The translations under genes were made by a program, and so were the position numbers. The notes under the pieces were generated by a model. That model was not told where the DNA came from and made no database searches. It saw only the letters and a program-made list of their open reading frames with translations. From Candidatus Omnitrophota bacterium (GTDB taxonomy: Bacteria; Omnitrophota; Gorgyraeia; Zapsychrales; JANLHA01): DNA of 32,000 bases. Every line of letters starts with the position of its first letter. The first letter of the stretch is position 1. Of this stretch, positions 1 through 32,000 are shown one piece after another. The stretch lies in NCBI GenBank assembly GCA_963662715.1, contig OY759724.1, positions 1,230,001 through 1,262,000 of the forward strand, read 5' to 3'.

Positions 1-860
1 AGACGAAGTATTCATAACCGCGGACCTGGCTGAGCGTCTTGCCGTCGTTATAAGAATACTGCAGGACAGGCAAGACCTTATCGGCGTCTGTTCCGAACAC
101 TTCGGCGATGCTTGACTTGATATCCTCCGGATTGACAATCAGGCGGATCTCTGTTTCATCGGTATACGGCTCGGCCCAGCCTCTCGCCAGCAATTTCTCT
201 GAAATTTCTTCCCAGTCAAGGCCTTCTTCTCTCTCGACCTGCTGCTGTGTCAGGACCTGCGGATCGACGATCTTGACCGTCATCTGCTCACCTCTTCCGC
301 CGGTCAGGATGAACTTCCGGCCGTCATTGCCCAGGACATCTCTCCGGTAATAATCTTCCTCCTCGGTCGGAGAACGGAAAACCCGGACTTCTTTCAAGCC
401 GTTGCCGTCCTTGAACACGATCGTTCCCGGATTGATTCCGACTCTCAGATCAACTTCAATATCTTCCCCGTTATTGACCTTGAGCTTGTGTCCTTCCAGC
501 CACAGGACATTAATACCGAAATCTTTGTTGGCATAAAGCGTGGCGATATCGCGGCCGCGGCTGTCATTCGGAGTCAGGTAATGGTAAAGCTGCTTACCTG
601 TCTTGTCCGGATTATATCGCGGCCGGCCCAGCAGAGGCAGGAGCGTCTTGGCATCCGCACCGAACACTTCCGTCATCTCCGCTCTCACGTCATTCAGGTT
701 GACGATCAGGTGAATCTCCTCAAGGCCTGTGCGCTGAGCCCACCCGTTGTGGAGCAGTTTTTCGGAGACATCGCTCCAGTCAAGCTCGGCTCTCTCGATC
801 TGATTTTTGGTCAGATAACCGTTCTCAAGGATAACCGGTGTTTCCTCAACGATATCAAAC
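1..860 (-). repeat. Diverged tandem duplication of a ~188-aa module (period about 565 bp); the second copy runs off the window
   Basis: ELDWSDVSEKLLHNGWAQRTGLEEIHLIVNLNDVRAEMTEVFGADAKTLLPLL (about 795-640) matches GLDWEEISEKLLARGWAEPYTDETEIRLIVNPEDIKSSIAEVFGTDADKVLPVL (about 230-75). Confidence 0.7.
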
Positions 861-12800: not shown

Positions 12801-15800
12801 AATGCTTCTGTCGGATCAATGCGATATTTATCTCTTGTCATTAAGGAAATCACTTTCTGGCGATCGGAAGACGGCGCAATACAGATTTCCATATGGACAT
12901 GGGCGACCGTTGTTTCGGCATTACCTGTTTTACCCGAGAGGGCAAAGACTTCACCCGCTTCAACTTTATCTCCTTCTTCGACCTCGTAATCATTCAAGTG
13001 GAAGAAGATAAAGAAGACTTTATCGCCGCCCGCCACTGTTTCATCGGATTCGATGAAGACGGTCTTTCCTGCTTTCTCAGACGCAGGATTGGTATGGATA
13101 ACCCGTCCGGAAACCGGCGACTTCAATTCCACGTCTTCCGGCAGTAATATATCGATTCCGCCGTGACCATTGACGGACCCGATTCTATAAGTTCCGAATC
13201 TTCCGTCTCCCTTGGAATCCCGTCCGCGGAGGACCCCGGCAGCGATCATTTCATCTTCAATAGCCGCGTTGTTCTCGAGTCTCTCTGTTGTTTCCGGAAC
13301 GTCCCTGCCTTCCACTCCCGGTTCTTCGGCCACTTTTCTTCTCAGGTCTTCTGTAATCTCACCCTCAGCAATCTTATTGCTGATGTGGACTAACGATTGC
13401 GGTGTCAACTCAAAGTCATCCCGGTCGTCACCGCTGAGCTGGAATGCTTCCTGGAAGAAGGCGATATCCTGTTCATCTAAGTCATCCCATTTGGCCTTAT
13501 CTTCAACAACGGCATCAATAAGAGCTTTGGACAGATATTGTTCTAAGGATTCTCTGTTAGCTTCCACCAGCAACAATGCCAGTTGACGATCGCGTTTTTC
13601 TTTCATATCGGCCAGGAGCTGAAGCTGCAACTGTTCTGCGCTGAGATTGATCAATTCTTTTTCTGAAACATTTTCATCCTTCAGTTTTTCTCTCGTGGCT
13701 GTTATGGCTTCTTCCGCTTGGGCCACGGCATCTTCATCCGAAAGCTCTGCGTCAAAAGTCTTGGCTCTGGCCGCTAATTCGTATACGGCAATATCTTTTT
13801 CTCCACCCATAATGTTCTGATAGACCCAGTTGCTGGCGCGTATTCCAGCTGCATCTTCGACACTATCCAGACCATGCTGAGCCCAGTTAATCGCACCATA
13901 CTGACCTTCAAGAGCTTCGGCCAAATTGTAGATCGGTTTACCCACAACGCCTAAGATCGGGTGTTCAGCCAAGGCCTTGCTGCCGCCCATAACCGCGTCA
14001 ATTTCAATTCCGATCAAGGACATATGCCACAAGCTGCTTAAGAACTTGCCGCCTTCTAAGAGCCATTGAGCGAAATAGGATGTCTTGGCTTTTTCAGTTA
14101 AATCTTTATTAGCTTCCTGCATCAGGTTAACGAAGAAATCAAAATCAAATTTTCTCGTATTATTCATCAGGAAGACCGGGAGATATCCGAGATAGAAGAC
14201 CGTCGCCAGCGGCACACCTAACCAGAAGCCGGTTAAGGCCTTGCCTAATGCTAAGGCCCGGTTCATGATGCTTCGTCCCTGCGGCGCGGCAACCTTGGTT
14301 TCGGCCTCTAACATTTTCTTCAGGGCCGGCCGGCCTTCAGCCGTTACAGTTCCGTCGGCGATCAATTCCTTGATAAGAATTTCTGTCTTCTCATTAGCTT
14401 TCTTGCCCTCTGCCGGATGCATCAAGCCGTACAAGTAGCGGGCAGATGTCGAGGCGATATTAACACCTTGTTTCTTCCTGGCCCGGATATACATAAGATG
14501 TTTGGCTGTATCAAGAACACTCATGAATCTCAAGCCAAGCACCGTAATCATTAATTTGACAAGTTCGGGCACGGATAACGGCAAGCCTAAAGCGTTGGAT
14601 GCGACAACATCCATACCGAATATCGAGATAACGAGAGCGTGGCCGATAACGCCGGAAATGAGAAGCATGGTGCCTCGGCTGACCGCAAAGCGTACGATAC
14701 CAAACGGAACCGGGAAGGCGGAGACCAGCCAAGCCAATAACTTCTGTCGACCATATGTCCAGGTCTTGCGGATACTGCCTATTTTTTCAGTCGCTAATTC
14801 TTCTCTGAGGATCTCGGTCTCTGCTTCAACACTCTTCCTCTTCTGCGCATCCATGGTTCCGTCTTTGTATTCCTTGACGAATTCAGCAAAATCAATAGAT
14901 TTCATGATGTATTCCCAGAAGAAGTTCCAGACCACTTTGACCAGGTAAGGTGCCAGGTATCCGAAGATGGCGCCTTTAGCCACGGAAATCCAGAAAGCTG
15001 TTGTTGCTACTGCTGTTAAAGTAAGCGGCATGAACAGGGCGCCGACAACCGCCCCTGCTGCCAGTGAAACGAGGGCAATCTTTGTCTTATTCTTGTCGAA
15101 GATCCTTAACATGCTGCCGATTAATGAGGACGGCTTCGGAGCATATGTCTGGGAATGTATGATTCTCAACGCCTGGCGTTCGAGCAAGCTGACGCCGCCC
15201 AGGACACCGTAAGTTAAGGAGGCATCTTTTCCAGCCTTAAGATTACTGACGTCCTTCACAAACAGGGCCAAACCGGCCATAATTAGCGATGATACGCCGA
15301 AAATGGCTATAAGCGACCCAGCCATCGTTGGAACGAGGGCAATACCGGCAGCGGCTATTCCAGCGTGAATTAATAATTTGAAGACATTGTAGACATCGCG
15401 CTTTTGCAGCGGTCTGGTGAACAAATCTCTTAAGTTACTCCAAATACCAGGTTTGACTGGACTGGAGACATTGCCGGTCTCATGACTTGAAATCTCTGTT
15501 TCTTCTCCCTTAACCGGACTGGAGACCGAGGTGTCCTCTACAGAAGCCCGTACGGGCGAACTGGCCACAGGAAGCTCGGCCGCCGTGATATTGGCTTGCG
15601 GGCTTAAGTATGTAATTCCGCGGTAAATACCTTGCGGATACCCTGTCGGTAACATCTGATCCGTGAATCTGATGACCATAGATCCACGTTTTACGGCCTG
15701 CTGCCCAGCTGTCGCTATACTGCCTGTTCCGATCTTGCTGATCATGTGTTCAGCAAAGAATCTAGTATTGTTTTCTTCTGCGTCGCCGCTTCCCTCTCCG

Positions 15801-18800
15801 CCGGCCGAAATTTCGAAGACGATCTTTGTTCTCATGCTTTCCAGCAGTCTGCCTAAGTCCACTATCGGATTCAGGAGAGCGCTAAGAAGTCTTTCTGTCT
15901 GTCTCTTATTGTCTTGATATGTCTTTGTTAAGAGATAATAGTAGAACCCTGTCTGCTCTTTATAGGTTTCTGAGATACGGCTTAATTGCTTAATAAACTC
16001 ATCTTGTTTCTCAAAGCCTCTATTGACACCGGAATCAAAGACGGCCTTCAAGCCATACAAGGCCGTTGTGCTTTCCTCTCCGGCATTTCTGTCGATGGAC
16101 GTGATCAGGTCAGCCAATTGTTCTCTGCTTGTGCTTCTGTACAACTTCGAAGCAAACATTCTTCTGAAGAGGTAATCTCTTGCTCCCCTTGCTGCTCTTC
16201 TGTAATTTTCAGCCGTGCTGAGCGCTGTCCAGGCCGCCGTCAGGTGCTCAACCGTCTTCCTGTAATCTCTGGCCATGAACTCTTTGACCTTGCCAGGTAC
16301 ACTTCTGAGCGCTGTCCAGGCCGCCGTCAGGTGCTCAACCGTCTTCCTGTAATCTCTGGCCATGAACTCTTTGACCTTGCCAGGTACACTTCTGAGCGCT
16401 GTCCAGGCCGCCGTCAGGTGCTCAACCGTCTTCCTGTAATCTCTGGCCATGAACTCTTTGACCTTGCCAGGTACGCTTCTGAGCGCTGTCCAGGCTGCCG
16501 TCAGGTGCTCAACCGTCTTCCTGTAATCTCTGGCCATGAACTCTTTGACCTTGCCAGGTACACTTCTGAGCGCTGTCCAGGCTGCCGTCAGGTGCTCAAC
16601 CGTCTTCCTGTAATCTCTGGCCATGAACTCTTTGACCTTGCCAGGTACACTTCTGAGCGCTGTCCAGGCTGCCGTCAGGTGCTCAACTGTCTTCTTGTAA
16701 TCTCTGGCCATGAACTCTTTGACCTTGCCAGGTACGCTTCTGAGCGCTGTCCAGGCTGCCGTCAGGTGCTCAACCGTCTTCCTGTAATCTCTGGCCATGA
16801 ACTCTTTGACCTTGCCAGGTACGCTTCTGAGCGCTGTCCAGGCCGCCGTCAGGTGCTCAACCGTCTTCCTGTAATCTCTGGCCATGAACTCTTTGACCTT
16901 GCCAGGTACGCTTCTGAGCGCTGTCCAGGCTGCCGTCAGGTGCTCAACCGTCTTCCTGTAATCTCTGGCCATGAACTCTTTGACCTTGCCAGGTACACTT
17001 CTGAGCGCTGTCCAGGCTGCCGTCAGGTGCTCAACCGTCTTCCTGTAATCTCTGGCCATGAACTCTTTGACCTTGCCAGGTACACTTCTGAGCGCTGTCC
17101 AGGTCGCCGTCAGGTGCTCAACCGTCTTCCTGTAATCTCTGGCCATGAACTCTTTGACCTTGCCAGGTACACTTCTGAGCGCTGTCCAGGCTGCCGTCAG
17201 GTGCTCAACCGTCTTCCTGTAATCTCTGGCCATGAACTCTTTGACCTTGCCAGGTACACTTCTGAGCGCTGTCCAGGCTGCCGTCAGGTGCTCAACCGTC
17301 TTCCTGTAATCTCTGGCCATGAACTCTTTGACCTTGCCAGGTACACTTCTGAGCGCTGTCCAGGCTGCCGTCAGGTGCTCAACCGTCTTCCTGTAATCTC
17401 TGGCCATGAACTCTTTGACCTTGCCAGGTACGCTTCTGAGCGCTGTCCAGGCCGCCGTCAGGTGCTCAACCGTCTTCCTGTAATCTCTGGCCATGAACTC
17501 TTTGACCTTGCCAGGTACGCTTCTGAGCGCTGTCCAGGCCGCCGTCAGGTGCTCAACCGTCTTCCTGTAATCTCTGGCCATGAACTCTTTGACCTTGCCA
17601 GGTACACTTCTGAGCGCTGTCCAGGCTGCCGTCAGGTGCTCAACCGTCTTCCTGTAATCTCTGGCCATGAACTCTTTGACCTTGCCAGGTACGCTTCTGA
17701 GCGCTGTCCAGGCTGCCGTCAGGTGCTCAACCGTCTTCCTGTAATCTCTGGCCATGAACTCTTTGACCTTGCCAAGTACGCTTCTGAGCGCTGTCCAGGC
17801 TGCCGTCAGGTGCTCAACCGTCTTCCTGTAATCTCTGGCCATGAACTCTTTGACCTTGCCAGGTACGTTTCTGAGCGCTGTCCAGGCCGCCGTCAGGTGC
17901 TCAACCGTCTTCCTGTAATCTCTGGCCATGAACTCTTTGACCTTGCCAGGTACGCTTCTGAGCGCTGTCCAGGCCGCCGTCAGGTGTTCAACCGTCTTCC
18001 TGTAATCTCTGGCCATGAACTCTTTGACCTTGCCAGCTTTAATGCTTACAGCCTCAACAGTGCTGTCAACCATCTCTTTCACGCCACCTCGTTTGATGAA
18101 GTTATAAACCCTTGCGCCCAACATCAAGCCAGGAATAATGAGAAGGACTGGCCAAACGGCACCAACCGTTGTCGCAACAACTGGTACGGTCTTTGCCACA
18201 ACCGGCAAGCCGACTGTCAGACCTTTACCTAATCCATAGGAAACAATGAGGTAGAGTATCGCAGATTTGATGGTTCCTGTTGCTGCAGCTCTGAACATAT
18301 TTCTATAGGTTACAGCACTAAAGACCGAACGGAAGAACCTCGCCGTACTCGCTCCGAATGTCTTTACGGCTTCGCCCATCTGTCTTGCTTTCTTTGCCGC
18401 TCTCTGATATCTCTTGTAGGACTTGGAAAGCAGGATATCTTCAATAACTTCTTTATCTTTACCCGCTAATAATTGGGCTAATTCATCGTTATTATCGAGT
18501 TTCAAGCGTCTCAATAATTTTTCTGTTTCACCGAGATTTCTTTCTATCGGTGAAGAGGAGGCAGAAGCTGTAACGGATTCGCGGCCAGAGGCGGAAAGAA
18601 CAACCTTCTCTCCCACCTCTGGTGTTTGAGATAATGCATATCTGCCTCCCTTAGTTGAGATTTCTGCGTGATCCTGTTCTGTAAATCGGAACTGTTCTAT
18701 TCTGGATCGCACTGGAGAGGATGCCTCGAACATGGTTGTACTCGGCTGCGCTGGTAAGCTCAACCCAAGTTGCTTTAAGGCCGTTACGGCGGTAAATCCG

Positions 18801-21800
18801 GCCTTTATGGTTGAAGATGAGGTATAAATGAGTTCTTCCTGTCTTCTCTCTGGCAGTGCCGAAGATACAGTCGCAACGCTGGATCTCAACGAGATGTTTG
18901 AATTCGATGTCTGGTAATTGATTGGTTTGCGTGTTGATAAGGACCATAATGTACCTCCTGTGGTTAATTGAATTGCTTGTGTATTTGTTCTATCAAATGA
19001 AGAACCCTGACCGGTAATATCTGCACGAATGGCAGCCATACCAGACAGGGTTCGTTTTGTATGGGATATAAGTGAAGCAACAGATCCTATATTTGCAGCT
19101 CTTGGTGCAACTTCATATCTGAGCTTCAATAAGGTAAGATTTGTCCTTATAGAGACATATGTGTCATATATGCCTTTAGTAATGACACAAATAGCTTTGG
19201 CGAGATTTTCTCGCTTAAAGACTTGAGTTAAGAGTTTTACTCTCTTGAGGGACTTTGATACAACTAACGATACGAGTGGCGTGCTAACTGGAATAGCAGC
19301 AGCCAATAGTTTCTCAACACCTAATGAACCTTCCCAAGCCATTCTAGACAGCCCAGAAATAGTTCTTGTAGTGTTTCTCTTTTCGCCTGTACCAGTTGCC
19401 TCGTTCTGATCCGCAGCTCTATCTGTTACAACCGCTACATCCTGAGTAAACTCTGCCTTGTCAGAACCTCTACCCGTTGTTACAGCAATAACCGCCTGAG
19501 CGATTCTCAGATCAAATTCATCCGCTAAAGCTTTATCCTCAGCAGCGCTTACCTTTATACCTACAGGCAACACTCTGAGAACTCTTCTTAACACATCTTC
19601 AGAACCACTTATCACCTCGATCGCTTTCGCAATCCAAGCTCTCAGCAATTCTGCGATACTGCTAAGCACACCTTCAGCAGATTCTTCGTACGCTTCTACA
19701 GTACTTACAGCCTGACCAGTCACCTGACCAAACCGTATACCTAAGGCTTTATTCTCAGTCACATCCATTACTGGCTGTACTCTGAGAATTCCACTGGAAA
19801 CAGCTTTTACTGATCCAGGCACAACTTCAGTTCCTGTTATCAGTACACCATCACCAGCAACCCTAGCTTCTGCTCGTACTGCATTCGCATAGCTAATCAC
19901 TTGACCGATTACTCGACCAAGCTTCACAAAGGCTTTTGCCTCAGCAAGACTTACTGTTTCTTCAACAGCTTGTTCACTGAGAACCTTATCAGATACAATA
20001 TTCGAACTGCTTACACCTTCGATTACTTGCGCAACCTTAGACTTCAGCAATCCTTCTACTATACCTTCACTTCTTACAGAGCGGTTTACTACAGTTACAA
20101 CGCGGTTAGCCTGAGCGATTCTCAGATCAAGTTCATCCGCTAAGGCTCTATCCTCAGCAGCGCTTACCTTTATACCTACAGGCAACACCCTGAGAACTCT
20201 TCTTAACACATCTTCAGAACCACTTATCACCTCGATCGCTTTCGCAATCCAGGCTCTCAGCAATTCTGCGATACTGCTAAGCACACCTTCAGCAGATTCT
20301 TCGTACGCTTCTACAGTACTTACAGCCTGACCAGTCACCTGACCAAACCGTATACCTAAGGCTTTATTCTCAGTCACATCCATTACTGGCTGTACTCTGA
20401 GAATTCCACTGGAAACAGCTTTTACTGATCCAGGCACAACTTCAGTTCCTGTTATCAGTACACCATCACCAGCAACCCTAGCTTCTGCTCGTACTGCATT
20501 CGCATAGCTAATCACTTGACCGATTACTCGACCAAGCTTCACAAAGGCTTTTGCCTCAGCAAGACTTACTGTTTCTTCAACAGCTTGTTCACTGAGAACC
20601 TTATCAGATACAATATTCGAACTGCTTACACCTTCGATTACTTGCGCAACCTTAGACTTCAGCAATCCTTCTACTATACCTTCACTTCTTACAGAGCGGT
20701 TTACTACAGTTACAACGCGGTTAGCCTGAGCGATTCTCAGATCAAGTTCATCCGCTAAAGCTTTATCCTCAGCAGCGCTTACCTTTATACCTACAGGCAA
20801 CACCCTGAGAACTCTTCTTAACACATCTTCAGAACCACTTATCACCTCGATCGCTTTCGCAATCCAGGCTCTCAGCAATTCTGCGATACTGCTAAGCACA
20901 CCTTCAGCAGATTCTTCGTACGCTTCTACAGTACTTACAGCCTGACCAATTTCACTACCTAAGACCGTATCCCTGACAGCTTCACTTATACCACTTGAAG
21001 CCACTTCAGGAACATCTTCTAATATAGTCAAGGCATTTACAGCTCTTTCAGTTGTTTTCACAACATCAGAACCTTCATAAACCTCAACCACACTAGCATC
21101 TTCGACAGTTACTGCACCTACTGTCTTAGCATACACGGCTTGAGCATCATCTCGTTCAAGCTTTTGTTCAAAGGCATTATCCTCAGCAGCACCTACTTCT
21201 ATATAAGCAGATACCTTGAGAACATGACCATACAGAATCTTTGCACCGCTTATTGCTTCAACATCGCGCAACTGCTTCACAGCAACTAACGATACCTGAT
21301 CTCTTCCAGCCATACCATTGATACTTCCAACATACGCAACATCAGCAGCCTTGCTTACAGCAGACATATAGTCTACATCAAAGGCTTTACCCTCAGCACA
21401 TAAGCCACTACTGGCCAACACACTCAGGATACGATTTGTGAATACGTTATTCAGCACATTCTCATTACTGAGGACGGCTACAACATATCCATCAAACCTT
21501 ACACCCCTGACAAAGCTTACTTCAGTAACAATGTCAGCATGATCAATTACTTGACCAAGTATACCAAAGGCATCTAACTCAGCCTCACCGGATACATCAT
21601 CAGCGAATACTCTGAGTTTTCCACTGTACAGAGAATCAGCACCGCTTATTGCTTCAGCCACACTTACAGCATCCACATTAAGCCATACACTGAATCCGCT
21701 AGTACTACCTTTAACAGAACGTGATACAACTCTTCCAACACCAACAACGGAAACAGTTTGATCGCTTACACGACCATACTCATTGCTGATTGCACTAGAC

Positions 21801-24800
21801 ACACCAAATACATCACTTGATTGTGTACTAGCCTTCTCATCATTAGACACAGCATTCGATTCGCTTCCAAGCGTTGATACACCTTCATCATCACTTGTAG
21901 TCGTATCTTCAACAACGCTAACGATAAGTACAGAGCGATTAGTCCATTTGCTGCCGTACGTTCTAAGGATCGTTACAACACGATTCGTATACTGCTTCAA
22001 CCAAGCACTAACTTTCATCAGGGCCGATCTAACAGCCACGAATATTCCTTCAGCTACCTTGAATGGCTCTTCAAGGTTGTAGCTGGCTGTAGGCACAGCT
22101 TCCGGTAATGTACTTCTTCTAGACCCGTTACCAGACTCAGATCTAGCAATTCCCTGAATCAATCCGGACAATAGAGCCATAACTGCCTTGGCTATGCCTC
22201 CGAAGAGTATAGACCAATCAATTGCAGCTATACCACTAATACCAGATGTTCTCAAAGAACCGGCATTGGCGTATGTTCCACCTACACCTCTCGTGTTAAC
22301 GCCTCCACGATTGGCGCTCACCCATCGAGTCTCTAACTCATCCTCGGCTTTTTGTGTTGCTGCCGAGAGAACTGTACTACTCGTCTCAACATTGACGATT
22401 GCACTGCTTACACCGTTCGCGTTATCGTCACCGCGACTGGCGTTTCTCACCCAATTAGTTTTTAACTCTGGTGTCACCGCTGTCGAAGCAGCCGTGATCA
22501 CACGAGCCGATTCAGCGATTGTACTGCTCACACCAGCAGCTACGCTAGTTCTGGTGGCGTGTTTCTCCCTTACTTCTGTCTTCGCCTCTGATGTGGCCGA
22601 TGCGACAACCACACGAGCCGATTCAGCGATTGTACTGCTCACACCAGCAGCTACGCTAGTTCTGGTGGCGTGTTTCTCCCTTACTTCTGTCTTCGCCTCT
22701 GATGTGGCCGATGCGACAACCACACGAGCCGATTCAGCGATTGTACTGCTCACACCAGCAGCTACGCTAGTTCTGGTGGCGTGTTTCTCCCTTACTTCTG
22801 TCTTCGCCTCTGATGTGGCCGATGCGACAACCACACGAGCCGATTCAGCGATTGTACTGCTCACACCAGCAGCTACGCTAGTTCTGGTGGCGTGTTTCTC
22901 CCTTACTTCTGTCTTCGCCTCTGATGTGGCCGATGCGACAACCACACGAGCCGATTCAGCGATTGTACTGCTCACACCAGCAGCTACGCTAGTTCTGGTG
23001 GCGTGTTTCTCCCTTACTTCTGTCTTCGCCTCTGATGTGGCCGATGCGACAACCACACGAGCCGATTCAGCGATTGTACTGCTCACACCAGCAGCTACGC
23101 TAGTTCTGGTGGCGTGTTTCTCCCTTACTTCTGTCTTCGCCTCTGATGTGGCCGATGCGACAACCACACGAGCCGATTCAGCGATTGTACTGCTCACACC
23201 AGCAGCTACGCTAGTTCTGGTGGCGTGTTTCTCCCTTACTTCTGTCTTCGCCTCTGATGTGGCCGATGCGACAACCACACGAGCCGATTCAGCGATTGTA
23301 CTGCTCACACCAGCAGCTACGCTAGTTCTGGTGGCGTGTTTCTCCCTTACTTCTGTCTTCGCCTCTGATGTGGCCGATGCGACAACCACACGAGCCGATT
23401 CAGCGATTGTACTGCTCACACCAGCAGTTACGCTAGTTCTGGTGGCGTGTTTCTCCCTTACTTCTGTCTTCGTCTCTGCTGTGGCTGATGCGACAACCAC
23501 ACGAGTCGATTCAACGATTGCACTGCTTACACCGTTCGCGTTATCGTCACCGCGATTGGCGTTTCTCACCCAATTAGTTTTTAACTCTGGTGTTACTGCT
23601 GTCGAAGCAGCCGTATTCACACCAACCTTTGCTATCGTTACAACATATTCAAGTCCTGTCCTCTCTTGAGCAGCTTTTCCTGCCTGAATGCCTGAGGAGG
23701 CATTGGCAGCGGCCCACGGCGTGGGACTAGAGCCAGAACTTCTAAAATTCTTTTTGGCTCCTTTGTCTATACTTAAATCTATGTGTTGCCGTTCTGCTTG
23801 CGGATCAACAATTGGTGCGCTGGCAACAGAAGCTTTATTAGCATTCATATTTCTGGCATAGGCGATAACCAAAGCTGTCTTGGCTTTTGCCGTTCCTGTA
23901 GCTCCGGCAGTTCCTCCGCCAGGAGCCGGCTCTTCAACAGGAGCAGGAGAACTAAACGGTGAACTTGTAATAGGAACACCTTTGGTTCCGCTATCCTTTC
24001 GGCCTTCTATAGGATTATGTTGATTGGACGGAAGAGACAACTTCCCAAGACTGAACGCTGCTATAGGCAATGCAGGGATAAATATTGGAGAAGACGGCAC
24101 AGCTTGCACAGGTAATTGCGGCGGTGCAACAGGCTCTGTAACAACAACTGGCGGTGCTAGCGGCTGTTCTTCCGGAGGCGCACGAGAAGCTTCCGTTAAT
24201 ACGGTTTCTTCCGGTTTAGAAAGGTCTTCCTGTTTAGCCACTTGCCCTGATACCTTATCCTGAATTGTTATCCCTGAAGCATCGGCAGGTTTCTCTGCTT
24301 GGGCCTTGTCCACTTTTGCCACTTCAATAACTTCTTCCTGGGCTCCTTCTTTAATTTCACTGCCGAACAAGAAGGCAAAGGCATCTTTAAGTTGTCCCCA
24401 CAAGCTCTCTGAGGACTCTTCGCCAACGAGAGCAACCAAATCTTCCTTAGTTTTAATTTTACGCAACTGATTAAGCGATTTTTCTAATATTGGATAGCCG
24501 TCTTCTGAAATTGTACGCTGTCCTTCCTGCTGTGCGGCATTGATAACAGCGTCCATCTCTTTGGCAAGCAACTGTCTTTCTGCCTGATCCTGAATTGACT
24601 GAGACATGACGGCCTTTATAACATCAAATGCTTTTCTGTTATCGACTGACAACTTCTCAATTTGCTGAATAACTGGTGAAGCCTGCGCAAGGCGCGGAAC
24701 CTCTGTAACCGTACCTGGTTGGTCTTTGGCTGTGGTAGAAGCTTTTGCAATTTCAACATATTTGGTTTGACTCTTTAACTTCTGACCATACGGAGTTCTT

Positions 24801-27800
24801 AATTCAGGCAAATTCATAGGGCTGGATAAAGCAACTATGATCGTTTCTGGAGTCTTTGATGGCGACTCGGACGGGAGATCTCCCGCGGATTCCTGAGTCG
24901 CTGATTCTGCCGGATTCATGATAATCATTGAAGACATCATCAGCAGACCACCAGATTTCACCTTTTGCTTTTGGGCTGCAATTCTTTTTGTTCTTGACGC
25001 CGTCCATTTCTGCTCCATAGCATTGGAAGGCAGATTCTGCGCCGGGGTCCTGGCTGGCTGAATCCTCACATAAGGTTTGGCAACTTGTGCAGGGGCAGAA
25101 GGACGAGTGATCTCTTGCTGTGTTGACTGAATAACCCGTGCATTCTTACTGGTCATCAACTCATCAACCGTAAATGACTTCACATTACCGTCTCTCATCT
25201 CCAGGCTGGCAAGTCTAACCTCCTGATCACTGCCAGGTGCCTTAAACTTAACCTGAGAAACGATCTTTCCAACCTCACTTATATTGTTTTGCCCGGACAA
25301 CTCTACCGTCTTACCCACCTGAGAAGGCTGCCCTTTAAATTCTTCTGTTATTATCGGACTGGCAACTGCAGCTAAAGCCATTTCTTCGCCAGCCGTGGCC
25401 GTCGTAGTAGTAGGACTAGGAAGAATGGCAGGAGGCATAGCAGCGGCTACGGATATTTCTTCTCTAGACGAAGCCGCCGACTCAACTTTTCCTCTGGAAG
25501 CAGCTGACGGCGTTTGAGCTAATAAGCCCATTGACGGCATAGTGGTCGCATCCATTCCAGGCAGCAATGGCAAGACTGTAGCCGGTGCGGCCGGAACAGC
25601 GGCTGGCGTTGATGCCGGCTGTTCAATAACAGTCGTTTCAGCCACCTGCTCTTTACGTGTTGTTATGCCTCGATCAATCGCAATATCAAACTGATACTGT
25701 TCAATATCCGACTTGCGGGTCGAAGCGACAACAATTTGCTCACCCGTCAAAGTTGTATACAGAATAGGGATGTCTTTCAGCTTGAATTGATCTTTTTCTA
25801 TTGACTTAAGGTCTCTGGCGAGGATCTTTCCAACCTTATTCGTCACGGCGACAACAAAGACGCCAAAAGCATCTTTAACCTCTAATTCCCTGGCTTGAGA
25901 TTCTTCAATAAATGCCCTGTACATACCCAAAGGATCGGAAATGCTCAAGTTATGCTTCCTGGCTTCGGCTATTCTCTGGTTCTGTGTCGCGACGTACTCC
26001 GGACCTATAATCAAGTAGGTCTGGCCTTTATTGTTCTTAATGATCCTGATTCCCTTAGGTTCAACGAAATAATTAAAATCATCGATCTTCACAAAGTCAA
26101 TTTGAATGTTCTCTTCCATCGCCAACTGTCTTGTCAAGGCTTCTAAATAATCTCCCATACTAAAGTCGGCGCCAGGAATGATATTGTCAAAGTCAACACG
26201 TTTATCAAATCTTACTGGTTTAAATACCGGTTTCTCGTTATCCACACTAACCATGACCATCTTTTCAGAATAGATCAATTGATTTCCGTTTACCGGCACG
26301 GCCAATTCCATTTCCTCGTCAAATTTAGCCCAAGCCAAATATCGAGTATTTCCTAAATGAACGGAAACCGGCAGCCATTTCTCTCCAGATGTTTTATCAA
26401 GGTATATATCCGCTGTTTTATCTGCCTCTATCAAGTATAAATTCCTGCGCTGGATATCACTCAATCCGGCAATAATCCGGCCTACTTCTATAATATTCAC
26501 GCCCTTGAATTCCATCTGCTGACGTCTCACCCGCCCTGTAGCATCGACGAACCGGACAAAATTCTTTTCGATATAGGCCCTGTCCCCGTCAGGCAAGCGA
26601 ACGACTGTAACCGCTTCCGGATCAATTCGATTTCGAGCAATAGTCTCAGCCCGCGTCTTCTCCATGGCTATAACAATATTTTCACGGCTGTCAACGATAA
26701 GGGACGTCGTTTCTATTTCTTTAGGATTATTTACCAAAGCTTGCGTCAACAATATTGTCTTTGGCTCCCCTCGCTTATTAATATCTGTTAACAAAATTTT
26801 TGCCGGAAGATTCATGTCTGAAGGAACAATCTGAATCCGGCTAATCTGTGATAAATCAGAAATATCAACCGATTTCGCCAAAGACACCAAAACACTCTCA
26901 ACCTGTTCTTGGGCGGAGAAATCACGTTTATCATAAGCAATCAATGTCGGGCTATCTGATTTGATCTGGCCTTCGGAGATTAAATCATGTTCTTTTAATA
27001 CCGCCCCAACGTCAACCGTACGATATTCTGAGCGTAAGGAATGGGAATACTTGCCTGTTTTCATGGCAATGGCGATACGATCTGTCTTTTCGATCTCCGG
27101 AATTTCTTTCTGTTCTCCCAAAATCGGATTAGAAACCACCCTGCGGAACGTCTCTTCCGGAATCAAAACAGTTCTGGTGTTCTCTGTTTCATCCGTAAGA
27201 TACAGTCTTGACTCCAAACCTTTACCCCGGATAATCTTAACGTGAGTTGTTCCTTCCTTGAACTCCGGATAGCTTCCCATAAGATCTAGGAGGCCCATCT
27301 TCTCAGAAACCGACAAATTGGCAGAATAGATAACCGAGGCATCTGATGCCTTTTCTTGGGTCAATGGGCTGGATAATGATGCTATCTCGAGGATTTCTCC
27401 CTGAACAAGCTGAAGTTTCTCGGTTGTCGGGAAAAGATGCTCGACCAGATCATTGTCCAAATAAGGCTTACGACCGACAATGTATTTTCTTAAATCTTCT
27501 GCTGACGGCTTCAAAGTCTGAGCATTCCCCAAGAGAACAACAGGGAAGTTACGCGGTAACTGATCAAACGGCAGTCTTTCTGATATAATTTCTCCATCCA
27601 AGCTCTTGTGATAAGCCACAAACGGTGTTTTTCTTGCCGCTTGAAGGGTTTGCATCAAATTTCTTACCAAAACGATATCATAATCGTCCAATTGAGGAAC
27701 CGCTTTTAAGAGCTTGTCCAGCCTGTTAATCGTTGCGGGTTTCTCCATCATAAGCATGGATATCTGCTGAATCGAATCCTGGGATAAGCTCATTCCTAAT

Positions 27801-30800
27801 TGGGTGGTAATGCGTTCCACTTCCAGGGCTTCCAGCGTCGGGACATAGACATAAACCGGTCTTGAAGTGTCAGTGACTGTTTTACGCGCCGAGGCTAACA
27901 ATTCAGGAAGAGTCTTATCTTCTTCAAAAAGAACAACCGATTTATTGGCATCATGAGCTAATCTCACTTTTTCTTCTAACGAAGCAGCCTTCTGGTGAAT
28001 TGTACCGCTTGTAATATCCCAGAAAGATAAATTCTCCGATTCTATTTCTCTCTCCAAATCTTTCTCAGTCGGCTCATAATAACCGTCTATCGGGGATGAA
28101 CTTGCCTGTGCCAAATCTGTAGCCGCAGAAGTTGAAACTTCTCTATTCGCCATAGGGCCGCCGCTAAAGGCAGGCAAAAGAATCGGTGCAGACAAAACAG
28201 GTAACGGCGCCGTAAGAGGAGCACTCACCGGTAATTCCACGGCCTGTTCCGGAGCCTTCGGAGACGGAAGGACATCCTCTCCTTCCGCGGAAGCGGCCTT
28301 TTTCATCTGTCCGCCGTGATCAACGACAGTGGCGGAAACCATCAACAATCCACCTTTTTTCTCCGGTTTTGGCATAGAAGCAAATTGAATCTCCGGTTTC
28401 GTAAGATTCAAATTACGCACAGGAGAAGGTGTCGGACGAATGCTGCTGCCGTCAATGGCATTAGAAGCAAGTTGTGTTAATCCCTGCTTTATTGTTTCCC
28501 CGGCAGACTTCTTCAACATTTCAGCTCTTATAGCTCCTGTCTTCTCTGCTGATTCAACGACAGGAGAGGACAATGTTGGGAATGTCGGGGCCGTGATCGT
28601 CGGAGCCACAGGGGCTGTTACAGACGGAGCTGCGACCATTTGCACCGGCTTTTCTGCAGACAGGGCTTGTGTCTGTGTTTCTTTAACAAGCGATGAAGAG
28701 ACAGACACCATGCCACCCGGCTGAGTCTGTGCAGCTTCAGGCTGCTTCAAAACAGATGAAGAGACAGTCATCATGCCGCCGGCTTGCGTTTCTGTCATGG
28801 TCATAGGCGACGGTTTAATCACCGACGAAGATACCTGCATCATGCCGCCCCGTTTTTCCGGTTTTGTCACCTGCTGACTTGTTTTAAGCGAAATGTCTCT
28901 GTTCCGGCTTGTTGTGTCGACCTTGGCAAGTTCCACCGGTTTGCTGCCCGGTAAAGCCGTTTCAAATGCTGGCAAGACCGCCGGGCTTGATATAGACGGA
29001 ACAGACGGAGCAACGGTTACAGGAGAAGCGGCAACAGCTGTTACCGGCTTCATTTCCGGTTTCTCAACAACAGATGAAGAAACTGTCATCATGCCGCCGG
29101 CTTGCGTTTCTGTCATAGTCATAGGCGACGGCTGAATAACCGACGAAGACACCTGCATCATGCCGCCGGCTTGCGTTTCTGTCATGGTCATAGGCGACGG
29201 CTGAATAACCGATGAAGACACCTGCATCATGCCGCCCGGCTGTGCTTGGGCCATAGCCACCGGCGACGGCTGAATAACCGACGAAGACACCTGCAGCATG
29301 CCACCACGTTTAGCCGGTTTCTTTGTGAATTGTATTTCTTCTCTAGATAAAGATCTCTGGCGTGAAGTTGTGTCAACTTTTGCCAGTTCCACAGTCTTTC
29401 TTCCTGGCTGAATATCTTTGCTTAACGGAGATGACGTCATAAGAGGCATCGGCATCGTCGTCGGAAGAGTAACAGCCGGGGCTTGCGGCGTCGCCACAAC
29501 AGGAGAAGCAGAAACCTCTACGGTTCTAGGTGCTTCAAGGGACGGAGCCTTAATGACAGCCGTCGAATCCTTCTTCACAACCGTTGAAGAAACGGTCATC
29601 AATCCGCCGGCCTGAGTTTCTGTCTTGGCCATAGGTGACGGCTTGATAACAGCAGACGATACCTGCATCATGCCGCCCGGCTGAGCTTGGGCCATAGCCA
29701 CCGGCGACGGCTTAATCACTGATGAAGACACCTGCATCATACCGCCTCGTCTGGAAATATTCTTAGGAGATAGAGCATAGCCCCGTTCCTGAGCTGTCAG
29801 CGGCATGGACCACCGTAACGGGCTGCTGGAACTGCTGCTGCCCTTCGGTTGAGACAAGGAGGCCAGCAAAGCTTCCTTAGCTTGTTTAGGAACATAGGCT
29901 TTTAACGGCGCGTTCATCTTCTGCGCCCAAATAATTCTATTATTGCCGTCGTACGCCGTTCCGTCACCGTTTAACGCCACGGGATCCTGCACCATAACGG
30001 CCATGATCGCCCTTTCTGTGCGATAAGGACTAAGGTTTGACATCTTCGGAGAAAGGTTCTGCACCTGCTCTGGAGTCAAGGTGACCAATTCGTCATATTT
30101 TGCCGGCGGCTGCACATCGAAAATAACTTCTCCCTGTGCCTGCGTCCTGATTTCAGAAGCAATCTGCGGATTCTCCTTCATTATTTCGGAAATCTTGGAA
30201 ACCAAGACAGCTTCTTGCGGCTGGGAAGCGGCGTTCATGGACCCCGTCAAAGCCCTGAGATCGGAATAATTGATATCTTTCGCATCTTTAGCAACAACAG
30301 AGGAAACTCTCTCCGGCAGTTCAATCGGAGAAGAAGAAGGCTTTTCTGTTAAGTCATAGGATTTCGCCATGAATTCACTGTTCGGCATTTCAACAAACTT
30401 CTTTAAAGCTTTTTCATAATCATGATCCAGGTCCCCCCGGTTTTCCACAACCATAACACCGAGGACCTTCTCCTCTTCAAGCACTCTGAAGACAACCCTT
30501 TGATTCCCCAGCCTGAGTTTATTAAGACCTTTTAAGGCCTGGTTGTATTCAAATTTAGACGGTTCCGGGCTCTCGAGGAAAGTTGTAAAGGAATCTGATA
30601 ATCTGCTTTGGACTTGATTGAGCTTGGCCTTCCTGACGTCCTTCAACACGCGGACAGTATAGCCTTTAACATTTACCGGCTGAGCGGCTGCGGCCACTTC
30701 GGCCGATGAAGAACCTTCAGTTCCTTCCCGTTTAGCGGCAAATTCTTTCTTTGACAGGCCCCAGCGCTGCAGATTATTCATAACCCGATGACGTGTCGAA

Positions 30801-32000
30801 CCTGTCATGCTCTGTGTGAGGTCAATCAAATCTTCATACAGCTTAACTTCACCCTGGTCTACAGAATCTTGAATTAAATCTTTGATATCATCAAAAGCCG
30901 CGCTTTCCTTGGCGTCCACAACAGCGCTGTCCGGAATCGGCATAATCTCCTGCTCCGGAGCGAGACTCTGTTCGGCAACCCGTAAAACCGGTTTAATTTC
31001 AGCATCAAATATTTCCTGTGCTTCTGACTTGGTGATCTTGGCAACGTCCGCCATGCGGGGCAGGGTAATATTAACATTATCGTCCTGCAATTTCACATAG
31101 GCGGCAGCCAAAGCCTGTCCTTTGGGAGAAATCCTTAAGGCATCGCCATACTGAACGACATCCTGAGGTGCTGATATGTAATTCTCTTGAATATAGGTCT
31201 TGGCCCTGGCCATTTCAGATCTGGCTTCAATGGATTTCTTCGGGCTGTTCTGGGTTTCACGGCTGTATGACAAGAGTAGATCAATAAACTTCTTAGGCTC
31301 AGTTCTTAAATCTGTCCGATCCAGTTCCTCCAGGATATCCGCTGCCTTAACGCTGACTCTTCCTCTGCCTTTGGTTAACTGAGCTTTAAACGGTTCGGCC
31401 TTCTTGACCGGACTGGACGTCGTGGCATTAACCACCGCGGATTGTGTCCCGTAATTCTCCGTGAGAATCTGCTGGAATTTAACCCGGTCGCTTGCGCGTA
31501 AAGAAATGATCTCATTACCGAATTTTTCAATCGTCTCAGCATCATCACTGTAAACCTTGACCCTGTTGCCGCGGGAAGTGACGGTAGGCGGAATACTCTG
31601 TTCCACTTTGGCTAATTTATCAACCGTAGGAATGAGTTCTCCGGCTGTCTGACCATCCAAATCAGAATCAACAACATTTGCCGTTAACCGGACCTTAGCA
31701 TCAACATCTATATTCTGATTAATTTCCTGCTCAACGGCATCAACGAAAGCCACAAAATCTTCTTCTTTTAAGTCGCGGTTAATGCCCTTGGGGATAACCA
31801 AATAGAAATTGTCCGGCGGGCCGCGAACCAAGCGCACGCCTCTGAGGTTTTGAGACTTTAATACTTTATTATAGGCTTCTGCCGAGGTCAGGATGACATT
31901 ATTCGCCAGTTCATGATCAGAGAATTCATTAATTACCTTAAATCCGAATTCCCCGTTATCATTTCCGCGCAAAGCATCGACAGTAAACTTGCCGGTGGCT
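1..32000 (-). CDS. Internal fragment of one giant ORF (10,666 complete codons, neither start nor stop in window). It encodes a multidomain membrane-associated protein with a peptidoglycan-hydrolase module and several in-frame tandem repeat arrays.
   Basis: The frame has codons at + coordinates 3n+2..3n+4, read from 31999 down to 2. I scanned the 60-nt lines by hand and found no tta/cta/tca (reverse complements of TAA/TAG/TGA) at a position equal to 2 mod 3. Interior copies of the three arrays were covered by the argument that their periods of 87, 111 and 615 bp are multiples of 3. The same frame gives canonical M23 and SLT motifs, hydrophobic helices and all the repeat peptides. None of the 12 minus-strand ORFs in the track is in this frame. 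The frame is missing from the track because it never closes. It reads ATGKFTVDALRGNDNGEFGFKVINEF at the 32000 end and NDGKTLSQVRGYEYFV at the 1 end. Confidence 0.92.
2440..2850 (-). other. Coiled-coil-like helical segment
   Basis: Translation gives AQAEEAQKEIEEYTERIRELEAEIAEIEERIAKETEERLAAEAAAV ... ALELQKKVLEERKRVAETQRGASEERLSGLSERIESM. Confidence 0.5.
4850..5950 (-). other. Beta-rich, aromatic-rich region with alternating polar/apolar strands (OMP-barrel-like character)
   Basis: Explicit translation of 5160->4862 gives TRYYALLGATYSWKTFSMSVDQAFGDSDRLSLRSNVGPFSGYYQRENDLETYGVQYSKKGISLGAFVNQYGDYGATASVRRNITKELEYEARYSTTGEP. Sequence of the same style continues upstream to about 5950. Confidence 0.35.
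5990..8060 (-). other. Alpha-helical / coiled-coil-rich region
   Basis: Long E/K/R/L/Q-rich stretches are present. Examples are QELEKQMVERDDDVVQQRLAAWKSFLQ, RRRELAETEAGLLREKQSLLRRSIELN and NLREANKLAEAEEDYEQLKLDAKRQVNAVADAANDYNDQLVALRQYL. No heptad analysis was run. Confidence 0.5.
11030..11290 (-). other. Domain: degenerate M23-like / barrel-sandwich domain lacking the metal-binding histidines
   Basis: Explicit translation gives RSYMDGTVISVEPGPFGEEIIIESETVEEGSGKTVKVQQIFGHLTGTNVNLVGQEIKAGTILGLAGTFRTETTAQSEYV. The M23 scaffold pattern is kept (G.V..V, Y/F.HL, V..G..V..G..IG..G). The HLHFE position reads SEYVFKL, and no HxxxD motif is seen upstream. Confidence 0.45.
12150..12560 (-). other. Domain: soluble lytic transglycosylase (SLT / GH23-like) within the giant ORF
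   Basis: Explicit translation of 12496->12422 gives ESRFKPRAVSRAGATGIMQIMPGTW, which contains the catalytic Glu-Ser and the GxxQ.MP.TW signature. Translation of 12240->12182 gives YTLAGYNAGPGYSAGYYPRV, which contains the AYNAGPG-type motif. Confidence 0.88.
12870..13200 (-). other. Domain: M23 (LytM/lysostaphin-type) zinc metallopeptidase, with catalytic motifs present
   Basis: Translation gives RIGSVNGHGGIDILLPEDVELKSPVSGRVIH...FFIFFHLNDYEVEEGDKVEAGEVFALSGKTGNAETTVAHVHMEI. The HxxxD motif (HGGID) has His at 13163-13165 and Asp at 13151-13153. The HxH motif (HVH) lies at 12893-12901. Confidence 0.82.
14160..15380 (-). other. Cluster of hydrophobic, predicted transmembrane helices (roughly 6-9 by eye)
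   Basis: Translated segments include LLIHAGIAAAGIALVPTMAGSLIAIFGVSSLIMAGLALFV, IALVSLAAGAVVGALFMPLTLTAVATTAFWI, AIFGYLAPYLVKVVWNFFW and LLAWLVSAFPVPFGIVRFAV. Further segments are MLLISGVIGHALVISIFGM and ALTGFWLGVPLATVFYLGYLPVFLM. The helices are separated by charged loops. Confidence 0.7.
16215..18036 (-). repeat. In-frame tandem repeat, 87 bp (29 aa) x about 21 copies; peptide unit GKVKEFMARDYRKTVEHLTAAWTALRSVP
   Basis: The period of 87 bp was counted directly. The antisense + ORF 15986..18232 shows 21 ERCPG..ARY(T/A)S units. Copies differ at only a few positions. Confidence 0.97.
18090..18290 (-). other. Hydrophobic helix pair (predicted TM hairpin) immediately N-terminal to the 29-aa repeat array
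   Basis: Translation gives FRAAATGTIKSAILYLIVSYGLGKGLTVGLPVVAKTVPVVATTVGAVWPVLLIIPGLMLGARVY. Confidence 0.6.
19475..20948 (-). repeat. In-frame tandem repeat, 615 bp (205 aa) x about 2.4 near-identical copies
   Basis: The identical 80-aa antisense ORFs at 19901..20143 and 20516..20758 are 615 bp apart. Copy junctions fall near 19475, 20090 and 20705, and the third copy diverges at about 20948. The unit peptide includes ...IGQAVSTVEAYEESAEGVLSSIAELLRAWIAKAIEVISGSEDVLRRVLRVLPVGIKVSAAEDKALADELDLRIAQANRVV.... Confidence 0.93.
20949..21700 (-). repeat. Diverged relatives of the 615-bp unit (degenerate repeats)
   Basis: The stretch 21175-21270 (ttatcctcagcagcacctacttctatataagcag...gcaccgcttattgcttcaac) is recognisably similar to ttatcctcagcagcgcttacctttatacctacagg...gaaccacttatcacctcgatcgc in the 615-bp unit. 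This was aligned by eye only. Confidence 0.45.
22386..23617 (-). repeat. In-frame tandem repeat, 111 bp (37 aa). Nine core copies lie at 22500-23498, eight of them apparently identical, bracketed by two diverged units of the same family.
   Basis: The string acacgagccg recurs at 22500, 22611 and so on, giving a period of 111. The core peptide is VVVASATSEAKTEVREKHATRTSVAAGVSSTIAESAR by explicit translation. The flanking units (22386-22495 and 23511-23617) are about 95 percent identical to each other. Both encode ...NWVRNANRGDDNANGVSSAIVES.... Confidence 0.95.
23870..24310 (-). other. P/A/S/T/G-rich low-complexity linker
   Basis: Translation includes SRAPPEEQPLAPPVVVTEPVAPPQLPVQAVPSSPIFIPALP and ITSSPFSSPAPVEEPAPGGGTAGATGTAKAKT. 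Confidence 0.7.
25370..25650 (-). other. P/A/T/S-rich low-complexity linker
   Basis: Translation includes IEQPASTPAAVPAAPATVLPLLPGMDATTMPSMGLLAQTPSAAS and AAAMPPAILPSPTTTTATAGEE. Confidence 0.7.
28690..29760 (-). repeat. Three clusters of 69-bp (23-aa) modules; unit peptide GGMMQVSSSVIQPSPMTMTETQA, separated by P/S/T/V-rich spacers
   Basis: The string ggcgacgg recurs at 29124 and 29193, giving a period of 69. Explicit translation of 29220->29102 gives SSSVIQPSPMTMTETQAGGMMQVSSSVIQPSPMTMTETQ. The clusters lie at about 29590-29760, 29060-29310 and 28690-28850. Confidence 0.85.

Follow-up and report, generated by a model that had tools for sequence, protein, structure and literature searches.

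How does a bacterial gene come to hold eight copies of a 111-bp sequence without one difference among them, and what might such an array mean for the protein that it encodes? The question is raised by a 32,000-nt stretch of a Candidatus Omnitrophota genome (contig OY759724.1, positions 1,230,001 to 1,262,000), to which we refer as the window. TRF delimits a tandem array of 111-bp period, 22499-23533, in which it counts 9.3 copies that match at 99% and are free of indels. Cut in register from position 22500, this array resolves into eight copies (22500-23387) that are 111/111 identical to one another and a ninth (23388-23498) that agrees with the unit, which we call B, at 107 of 111 positions, the substitutions falling at offsets 41, 86, 92, and 99. 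The periodicity is just as strict, with s[i] equal to s[i+111] for every i from 22499 to 23316, which makes 929 bp (22499-23427) flawlessly periodic. The in-register cut agrees with the original prediction of nine 37-aa units in tandem, eight of them identical and the ninth with four substitutions. That prediction had also stated that substantial divergence between copies in a computed alignment would overturn it; the alignment, once computed, returned the values of 111/111 and 107/111 just given, which is the identity at the DNA level that characterizes a coding minisatellite. Chance cannot account for eight identical 111-mers.

Read on the minus strand, unit B encodes the 37-aa peptide VVVASATSEAKTEVREKHATRTSVAAGVSSTIAESAR. 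In codon register, the eight identical copies occupy 22502..23389 (aa 2871-3166), as supported by TRF, in-register comparison, and periodicity, and the variant copy, B', occupies 23390..23500 (aa 2834-2870), also on the minus strand. B' is therefore the N-terminal member at the edge of the array, and its four substitutions relative to B translate into S8A, A10T, and A25T plus one synonymous change. The array region is rich in A/S/T/V/E. We found neither an inverted repeat within the 111-bp unit nor a compositional anomaly at the array, and 21500-24500 shows no noteworthy promoter- or terminator-like signals.

The array is embedded in a single minus-strand frame, open over 10,666 codons (1..31999), which runs off both ends of the window, holds all the features described here, and represents a fragment of a giant gene. 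Since the period of 111 bp corresponds to 37 codons of this frame, the array is a coding tandem repeat, and the expansion is indeed in frame, as had been proposed. No other long stop-free frame exists in the window, the next longest (748 and 503 aa) being plus-strand shadows of two big repeat arrays. At a stop frequency of ~0.053 per codon, estimated from base composition, 10,666 open codons would occur by chance with a probability of ~e^-580. The translation contains only three cysteines, and its recurrent SSP[VI] motif offers candidate sites of cleavage. The original prediction had seen neither this minus-strand ORF of more than 32 kb nor its four tandem arrays.

In the 9,678 aa scanned, Pfam identifies nothing but a Peptidase_M23 domain (12881..13168, minus strand, aa about 6278-6373), with an E-value of 1.1e-19 and a PHROG metallo-endopeptidase match at 2.8e-23, and an SLT lytic transglycosylase domain (12209..12526, minus strand, aa about 6492-6597), with a Pfam E-value of 2.4e-16. 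PHROGs likewise return only variants of the M23 and SLT domains, and the array region, which lies more than 3,100 residues N-terminal of these hydrolase domains, has no match in either collection. Within the ORF as limited by the window, SecA DEAD, HEAT, TPR, glycosyltransferase, dockerin, and TSP3 are all absent from the Pfam matches in the 9,678 aa scanned, as are RTX- or LPXTG-type matches in the windowed part of an ORF whose ends lie outside it. About 95 aa after the array comes a hydrophobic segment, AIDWSILFGGIAKAVMALLSGLI... (22145..22225, minus strand, aa 3259-3285), with a Kyte-Doolittle peak of 1.9, which is a candidate membrane helix. It is one of about 12 hydrophobic peaks in a Kyte-Doolittle scan of the ORF, most of which cluster in aa 5539-5945, with others near aa 4230 and 4604.

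On both sides, the array is bordered by units of another kind. Flank unit A1, TAASTAVTPELKTNWVRNANRGDDNANGVSSAIVESTR, is found at 23501..23614 on the minus strand (aa 2796-2833), and over its final 12 aa it is similar to the tail of unit B. Flank unit A2 (22382..22495, minus strand, aa 3169-3206) ends with NVET instead of ESTR. When 22395-22495 is aligned with 23514-23614, the two are identical at 98 of 101 nt (97%), with two of the three differences being synonymous and one N/S. A near-identical pair of flanks had been predicted, and this stands, although at 97% rather than the ~95% originally given. Past the 101-nt stretch, the C-terminal tails of A1 (ESTRV) and A2 (NVETS) diverge completely. 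The offset between A1 and A2 is 1119 bp, i.e., 120 + 9x111, and the two are consequently in frame with each other. A2 is followed by a diverged unit, C, which contains ...ELETRWVSANRGGVNTRGVGG... (22250..22381, minus strand, about aa 3207-3250). The score of A2 against C (z=7.5) was reached by only one of 2000 shuffles, and A is clearly related to the downstream unit C.

The relationship between the flanks and unit B is much less straightforward. Against shuffles, A1 scores z=5.4 with B, but the signal stems from the C-terminal 12 aa, GVSSxIxESxR, over which 31 of 35 nt are identical; the 25-27-aa cores of A1 and B are not significantly similar (z=0.5), and A2 reaches z=2.3 with B. It is because of this shared tail that TRF runs on for 0.3 copy into A1. 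A unit HMM finds A1, B', the eight B copies, and A2, together with a weak unit at aa 3220-3245 and two marginal matches elsewhere. These scores hint, weakly, that A and B may belong to one repeat family, and the earlier assignment of flanks and array unit to a single family thus applies to the 12-aa tail and does not extend to the cores.

The same caution applies to the relative ages of flanks and array. The A-[B]x9-A layout originally described is correct insofar as the array sits between a near-identical A pair, but a division into old flanks and a young core is too simple, since B' differs from B at 4/111 positions (3.6%) and A1 from A2 at 3/101 (3.0%). These divergences are of similar size and give no evidence that the flanks predate the origin of the B lineage; of the array and its flanks, only the eight identical copies are clearly younger. 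Plain tandem duplication of an A-B block would not yield the A-B9-A order.

Relatives of the gene provide an independent view of the region. As query for a scan of GTDB species genomes, we used the M23-SLT region rather than the array. Most matches were ordinary SLT proteins, and the best (22-37% identity) was a locus, L001, of 'Candidatus Omnitrophota bacterium NC_groundwater_1970', in which all 17,048 bp form one open frame of 5,682 codons. Residues 2220-3195 of L001 align with aa 6474-7585 of the window (24% identity over 1,174 aa, E 2e-32) and residues 3314-4610 with aa 7810-9194 (22% identity over 1,442 aa, E 5e-36). Moreover, an N-terminal module (7-131 in L001) matches window residues 47-164, and a small C-terminal domain is common to both, with 40-48% identity. 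Judging from these alignments, the window ORF is distantly collinear with the giant ORF of L001. The span from the N-terminal module to SLT amounts to about 2,090 aa in L001 vs. about 6,310 aa in the window.

For the array itself, we searched 1.84 billion representative proteins with HMMER, using aa 2440-3560 as query, and obtained four matches (P0001-P0004). Two of these, P0001 (E 3e-18) and P0003 (8e-5), were rejected as homologues, as they are unrelated proteins that have repeats of 37-aa period, in which a match of 25-27% is multiplied per copy. The other two, P0002 and P0004, show genuine homology, but it is limited to the flank (window aa 3171-3368 and 4261-4442); both conserve the hydrophobic segment. 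P0002 is encoded on L161 (ENA ERZ21869602 ctg58358l, 13.3 kb, 58% GC), which is collinear with window aa 3264-6608. On L161, this sequence is divided among at least eight genes of one strand, which adjoin each other or share a few bases. The SLT domain anchors the homology of the window to both L001 and L161. At the site corresponding to A1-B'-B8-A2-C, P0002/L161 has about three diverged single units (counted by eye). Elsewhere, two shared anchors that are 910 aa apart in the window are separated by 492 aa in L161; the shortfall, 418 aa, is roughly the length of two additional copies of a 205-aa unit of the window, described below. Across these comparisons, the N-terminal third of the giant gene is barely conserved between relatives and is, on this sequence evidence, fast-evolving.

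No credible homologue of the 37-aa unit was present among the 1.84 billion representative proteins. An exact 56-mer of the unit had no match in IMG/VR, and the array region had no relative in a scan of JGI metagenomes; a second JGI scan, with an alignment of the SLT region, found ordinary SLT proteins only, and no giant ORF encoded any of these. In a word search of 5.8e9 clusters, neither the array region (aa 2700-3330) nor the M23-SLT region (aa 6230-7600) had a homologue among the 8000 word-sharing candidates listed, and since ordinary M23/SLT proteins were expected for the latter, this search is weak evidence. A phage or plasmid origin was unsupported, as tblastn against phages and plasmids, blastn against phages, and PHROGs yielded generic M23/SLT matches only, such as tape-measure or endolysin types.

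With the 111-bp array, the ORF contains four tandem arrays (111, 87, 615, and 69 bp), all on the minus strand. The 87-bp array comprises 21 in-frame copies of a 29-aa unit, KVKEFMARDYRKTVEHLTAAWTALRSVPG, at 16218..18036, which are 98% identical; two synonymous third-position variants make up a mosaic across the copies, a few singletons occur besides, and both edges are diverged. As these variants fall mostly at third codon positions, the pattern suggests that the peptides of this array are under constraint. The 615-bp (205-aa) unit is repeated about 2.4 times at 19494..20948, in frame, with about 99% identity. Finally, 28683..29691 contains nine copies of older, diverged 69-bp (23-aa) units, GGMMQVSSSVI[KQ]PSP..., which are 63-73% identical, with a tighter three-copy core at 29087-29302. 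A single ORF thus displays graded array identity, from 100% (111 bp) through about 99% (615 bp) and 98% (87 bp) to 63-73% (69 bp), and arrays of near-identical copies take up 4,600 bp (14%) of the window. No arrays of note were found in L001. L161 has one of its own, a 225-bp unit present three times with 98% identity, at a different place, which implies that such arrays recur in the family.

Taken together, the array is a coding minisatellite, amplified head to tail and in frame within a giant gene; its copies are probably gained and lost by slippage or unequal exchange, and it most likely acts as a length-variable spacer. Because P0002/L161, the one relative that extends over this region, shows about three diverged single units there, the B expansion appears to be lineage-specific, and because divergence among the eight copies is zero, it would be either recent or continually homogenized. 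The original prediction of a very recent expansion inside an older repeat is thus borne out in part: zero divergence and absence of the array from P0002/L161 both speak for it, but homogenization by exchange or gene conversion fits equally well. Comparison with relatives, also proposed at that stage, comes down to this one homologue of the region, which has its diverged single units and no array; searches with array sequence in viral, JGI metagenome, and protein collections yielded no close relative.

The expansion could proceed as follows. Copies may be added or removed when 111-bp units, which are long enough for both processes, mispair by strand slippage or undergo unequal homologous exchange. 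With 111 divisible by three, each copy gained or lost amounts to 37 residues and causes no frameshift. The protein would consequently become longer or shorter just upstream of a hydrophobic, probably membrane-spanning helix. Interior copies may stay identical through continued exchange, and an edge copy, having fewer partners, would drift. A drifting-edge pattern matches both B' and the two ends of the 87-bp array.

An edge copy more diverged than the interior, as found in both arrays, is also the classic signature of homogenization, and the array might be an old one that concerted evolution has kept uniform, with a copy number that may be stable and under selection. The similarity of the two divergences reported above (3.6% for B'-B and 3.0% for A1-A2) would be in keeping with this idea, as the scaffold is perhaps not much older than the origin of the array. 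However, the lone relative covering the region is without the array and unit B occurs in no other database protein, and we regard an old, homogenized array as rather doubtful.

Structure prediction yielded two contradictory models of the repeat. An AF2 model of aa 2760-3300, computed without an alignment and containing nine copies, consists of regular β-hairpins with strands of 16 and 13 residues per unit (pLDDT 70-90, pTM 0.70). In contrast, the model of aa 3056-3330, likewise from a single sequence and with three B copies, is one continuous α-helix, with pLDDT of 81-92 in the first 60 residues, falling to ~60 by residue 100. The hydrophobic segment at aa 3259-3285 is helical in both. Foldseek found no significant match in the PDB, the best E-value being 0.8. 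The β-hairpin and α-helix models are incompatible with each other.

Contradictory models are one of several observations that would suit a functionally neutral expansion of DNA that has no role of its own and is accommodated by a disordered linker in the giant protein; the others are the lack of Pfam or PHROG matches, the A/S/T/V/E-rich composition, and the poor conservation of the N-terminal third between relatives. Against this, the mostly third-position variants of the 87-bp array suggest constraint on the peptide, although the 111-bp array is itself too invariant to judge, and we think it unlikely that the repeat is mere tolerated DNA. Our preferred interpretation remains a length-variable spacer or exposed segment, which is most likely what the repeat represents, rather than a catalytic part of the protein. 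It is the most economical reading, because the array lies in the fast-evolving N-terminal third, a short way before a conserved hydrophobic helix and far ahead of the hydrolase domains.

An array of this kind also invites the suspicion that the assembly made it, i.e., that the array exists but that its copy number, and perhaps its perfect identity, were produced by an assembler or polisher through cycle traversal, collapse or expansion, or a homogenizing consensus. Its 929 bp of perfect periodicity are longer than short reads and k-mers, arrays of this type are documented to be collapsed or miscounted (PMC6868369), and as any copy number preserves the frame, an intact ORF is no check on the count. 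Nevertheless, the 21-copy 87-bp array retains a mosaic of individual variants and the ninth copy of the 111-bp array has kept its four, which argues against blanket homogenization and suggests reads long enough to order the copies; in addition, the frame continues for 32 kb without a frameshift. We consider an artefact improbable. As a practical warning, the length of gene and protein at the array is uncertain in any assembly. As for the plus-strand ORF at 22188-23669 (493 aa), the notion that it is the true coding frame can be dismissed, since it exists only via one stop-free unit and ends right outside the array, whereas the minus frame is open for 32 kb, with Pfam domains and homologues.

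In-frame identical tandem repeats in very large bacterial proteins are of a well-known kind; it is the sequence of the unit that is without relatives. For example, Alpha C and other Alp-family streptococcal surface proteins have long identical tandem coding repeats of variable number. In this they resemble the window array, but their units measure 82 aa instead of 37 and have a known fold, and the Gram-positive LPXTG proteins to which they belong are known to be linked to immune escape. The B repeats of SasG from Staphylococcus aureus are tandem, in frame, and identical at the DNA level, with eight identical copies in NCTC 8325; their number is hypervariable even within one culture and sets the reach of the protein (PMC6868369). 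SasG, and the related Aap, share with the window array the identical in-frame coding repeats, but SasG units are 128-aa domains with a known fold, and the Gram-positive protein that contains them is LPXTG-anchored and ordinary in size, whereas the window unit has 37 aa, matches no known domain, and belongs to an ORF of more than 10,666 aa. A giant bacterial protein with identical tandem repeats is offered by the 1.5-MDa MpIBP/MpAFP of Marinomonas primoryensis, in which region II, an extender, consists of about 120 identical tandem repeats that account for most of the size of the protein (PMC4083281), the number of which is unreadable by sequencing (PMC4083281; PMC6868369). The MpIBP repeats, however, are 104-aa Ca2+-dependent Ig-like domains of an RTX/T1SS adhesin, and no such domains or signals were detected in the window ORF. 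More generally, the window repeat does not behave as an autonomous known domain of the Ig-like, G5-E, or Rib type, as it has 37 aa, has no Pfam or PHROG match, and yields AF2 models that disagree.

The most pertinent comparison is with the giant genes of Omnitrophota, largely unannotated single ORFs of tens of kb that have transmembrane segments and an occasional SLT domain and are proposed to attack cell walls (10.1101/2023.11.21.568195; 10.64898/2026.06.07.730766). The closest homologue of the window ORF is itself a giant ORF in an Omnitrophota MAG; no marker gene is present in the window. West-Roberts et al. 2023, who do not mention M23, define a giant class of at least 30,000 aa (bioRxiv 10.1101/2023.11.21.568195), and the window ORF, cut at both ends, has at least 10,666 aa. 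Archaeovorin or Dockerin-type hallmark domains are absent from the Pfam matches in the windowed ORF and could lie outside the window. According to a 2026 preprint, strict identical nucleotide tandems occur in 17% of Omnitrophota long genes, and always make up <10% of the CDS; the preprint concludes that repeat architecture is for the most part ancient (10.64898/2026.06.07.730766). The window gene belongs to this minority of long genes with strict identical tandems.

By itself, the array is a textbook coding minisatellite, and its interest comes mainly from the giant-gene context. Among the several tandem expansions of this giant gene, which is little understood and encodes peptidoglycan hydrolase domains, it is the freshest, and it offers a concrete and datable case of the lengthening of such genes. 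Should the number of copies differ between cells, the array would provide a simple marker for strain-level dynamics in an uncultured lineage, as well as a handle on exposed or length-sensitive parts of the giant protein. Tentatively, and with less confidence than we place in the minisatellite itself, we propose that the window may capture a giant gene in the process of growing. If both of the observations that follow hold, this growth would proceed through operon fusion and repeated minisatellite bursts; the 111-bp array would represent the latest burst, and its copy number would probably vary within the population. The basis for this proposal is the presence of four independent in-frame arrays of graded age in 32 kb, amounting to 14% of it. 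The arrays form part of an excess of roughly 4,200 aa over the Omnitrophota relative L001 between shared anchors. On L161, which belongs to another lineage, the common gene order takes the form of eight or more separate same-strand genes.

A single ORF of 10,666 codons spans the complete 32-kb window on the minus strand (1-31999) and is truncated at both window ends. The only recognizable domains in this giant ORF are a Peptidase_M23 domain and a lytic transglycosylase (SLT) domain, and just three of its 10,666 residues are cysteines. In addition to the 111-bp array, it contains three further families of tandem repeats, all on the minus strand. One is an in-frame array of 21 87-bp units (16218-18036, aa 4657-5265), encoding 29-aa units (KVKEFMARDYRKTVEHLTAAWTALRSVPG), in which two synonymous third-position variants (A/G at unit position 57 and C/T at position 78) are distributed in a mosaic, together with a few singletons, while the copies at the edges are diverged. 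A longer unit of 615 bp, that is, 205 aa, is present in 2.4 copies of about 99% identity (19494-20948, aa about 3685-4180), and was not reported by TRF because its period exceeds 500. Units of 23 aa (GGMMQVSSSVI[KQ]PSP...) make up an older family, which comprises nine copies with 63-73% DNA identity (28683-29691, aa about 750-1100), including a tighter core of three 69-bp units at 29087-29302.

Repetition also affected homology searches. Two HMMER matches to the 111-bp array, P0001 (E 3e-18) and P0003 (E 8e-5), were rejected as relatives since they are unrelated proteins with 37-residue-period repeats of their own, whose scores result from period-matched repetition alone. This is a warning for homology searches using repeats as queries.

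The 13.3-kb contig L161 (ENA ERZ21869602 ctg58358l), which encodes P0002, a homologue of the flank of the 111-bp array, is collinear with the giant ORF but split. Its gene order (1-13297) matches aa 3264-6608 of the window, and its first ORF resembles, by eye, the N-terminal module of the window. This contig (58% GC) is divided into at least eight same-strand genes, abutting or overlapping, of 189+, 1376, 470, 682, 677 (SLT), 209, 299, and 292+ aa. Either the window ORF is a fused operon, or L161 contains frameshift errors. P0002 appears to carry one copy of the 205-aa unit, because the distance between its anchors falls 418 aa short of that in the window. L161 also has a lineage-specific array of 3.0 225-bp units (6058-6734, 98% matches) within the 470-aa gene, at a position unlike that of any array in the window.

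L001, a distantly collinear giant ORF of 5,682 codons from another Omnitrophota bacterium (NC_groundwater_1970), displays a Glyco_hydro_2_C-like TIM-barrel segment (aa about 5100-5330, nt about 15300-16000; E 2.7e-7) after the collinear stretch, with no counterpart seen within the window. The best-conserved piece common to both ORFs, with 40-48% identity, is a C-terminal domain of ~70 aa without Pfam match (…LDWxxxSEKLLxxGWAxxxxxxxEIxLIVNxxDxxxxxxEVFGxDAxxxLPxL…), of which the window has two minus-strand copies, at 608-820 (aa 10394-10464) and 59-223 (aa 10593-10647).

The motif S-S-P-[VILMF], which might serve for processing or modification, occurs 15 times in the window ORF, compared with 0.6 times on average and at most 4-5 times in shuffled sequences. 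All copies (aa 195-5512, about 15465-31417) lie inside the cluster of hydrophobic, putatively membrane segments or N-terminal of it, and the C-terminal 5,150 aa have none. The motif is also found in L001 (five copies, aa 238-1600) and, repeatedly, in P0002 (e.g., SSPVGALVMSLSSPVTEKDY).
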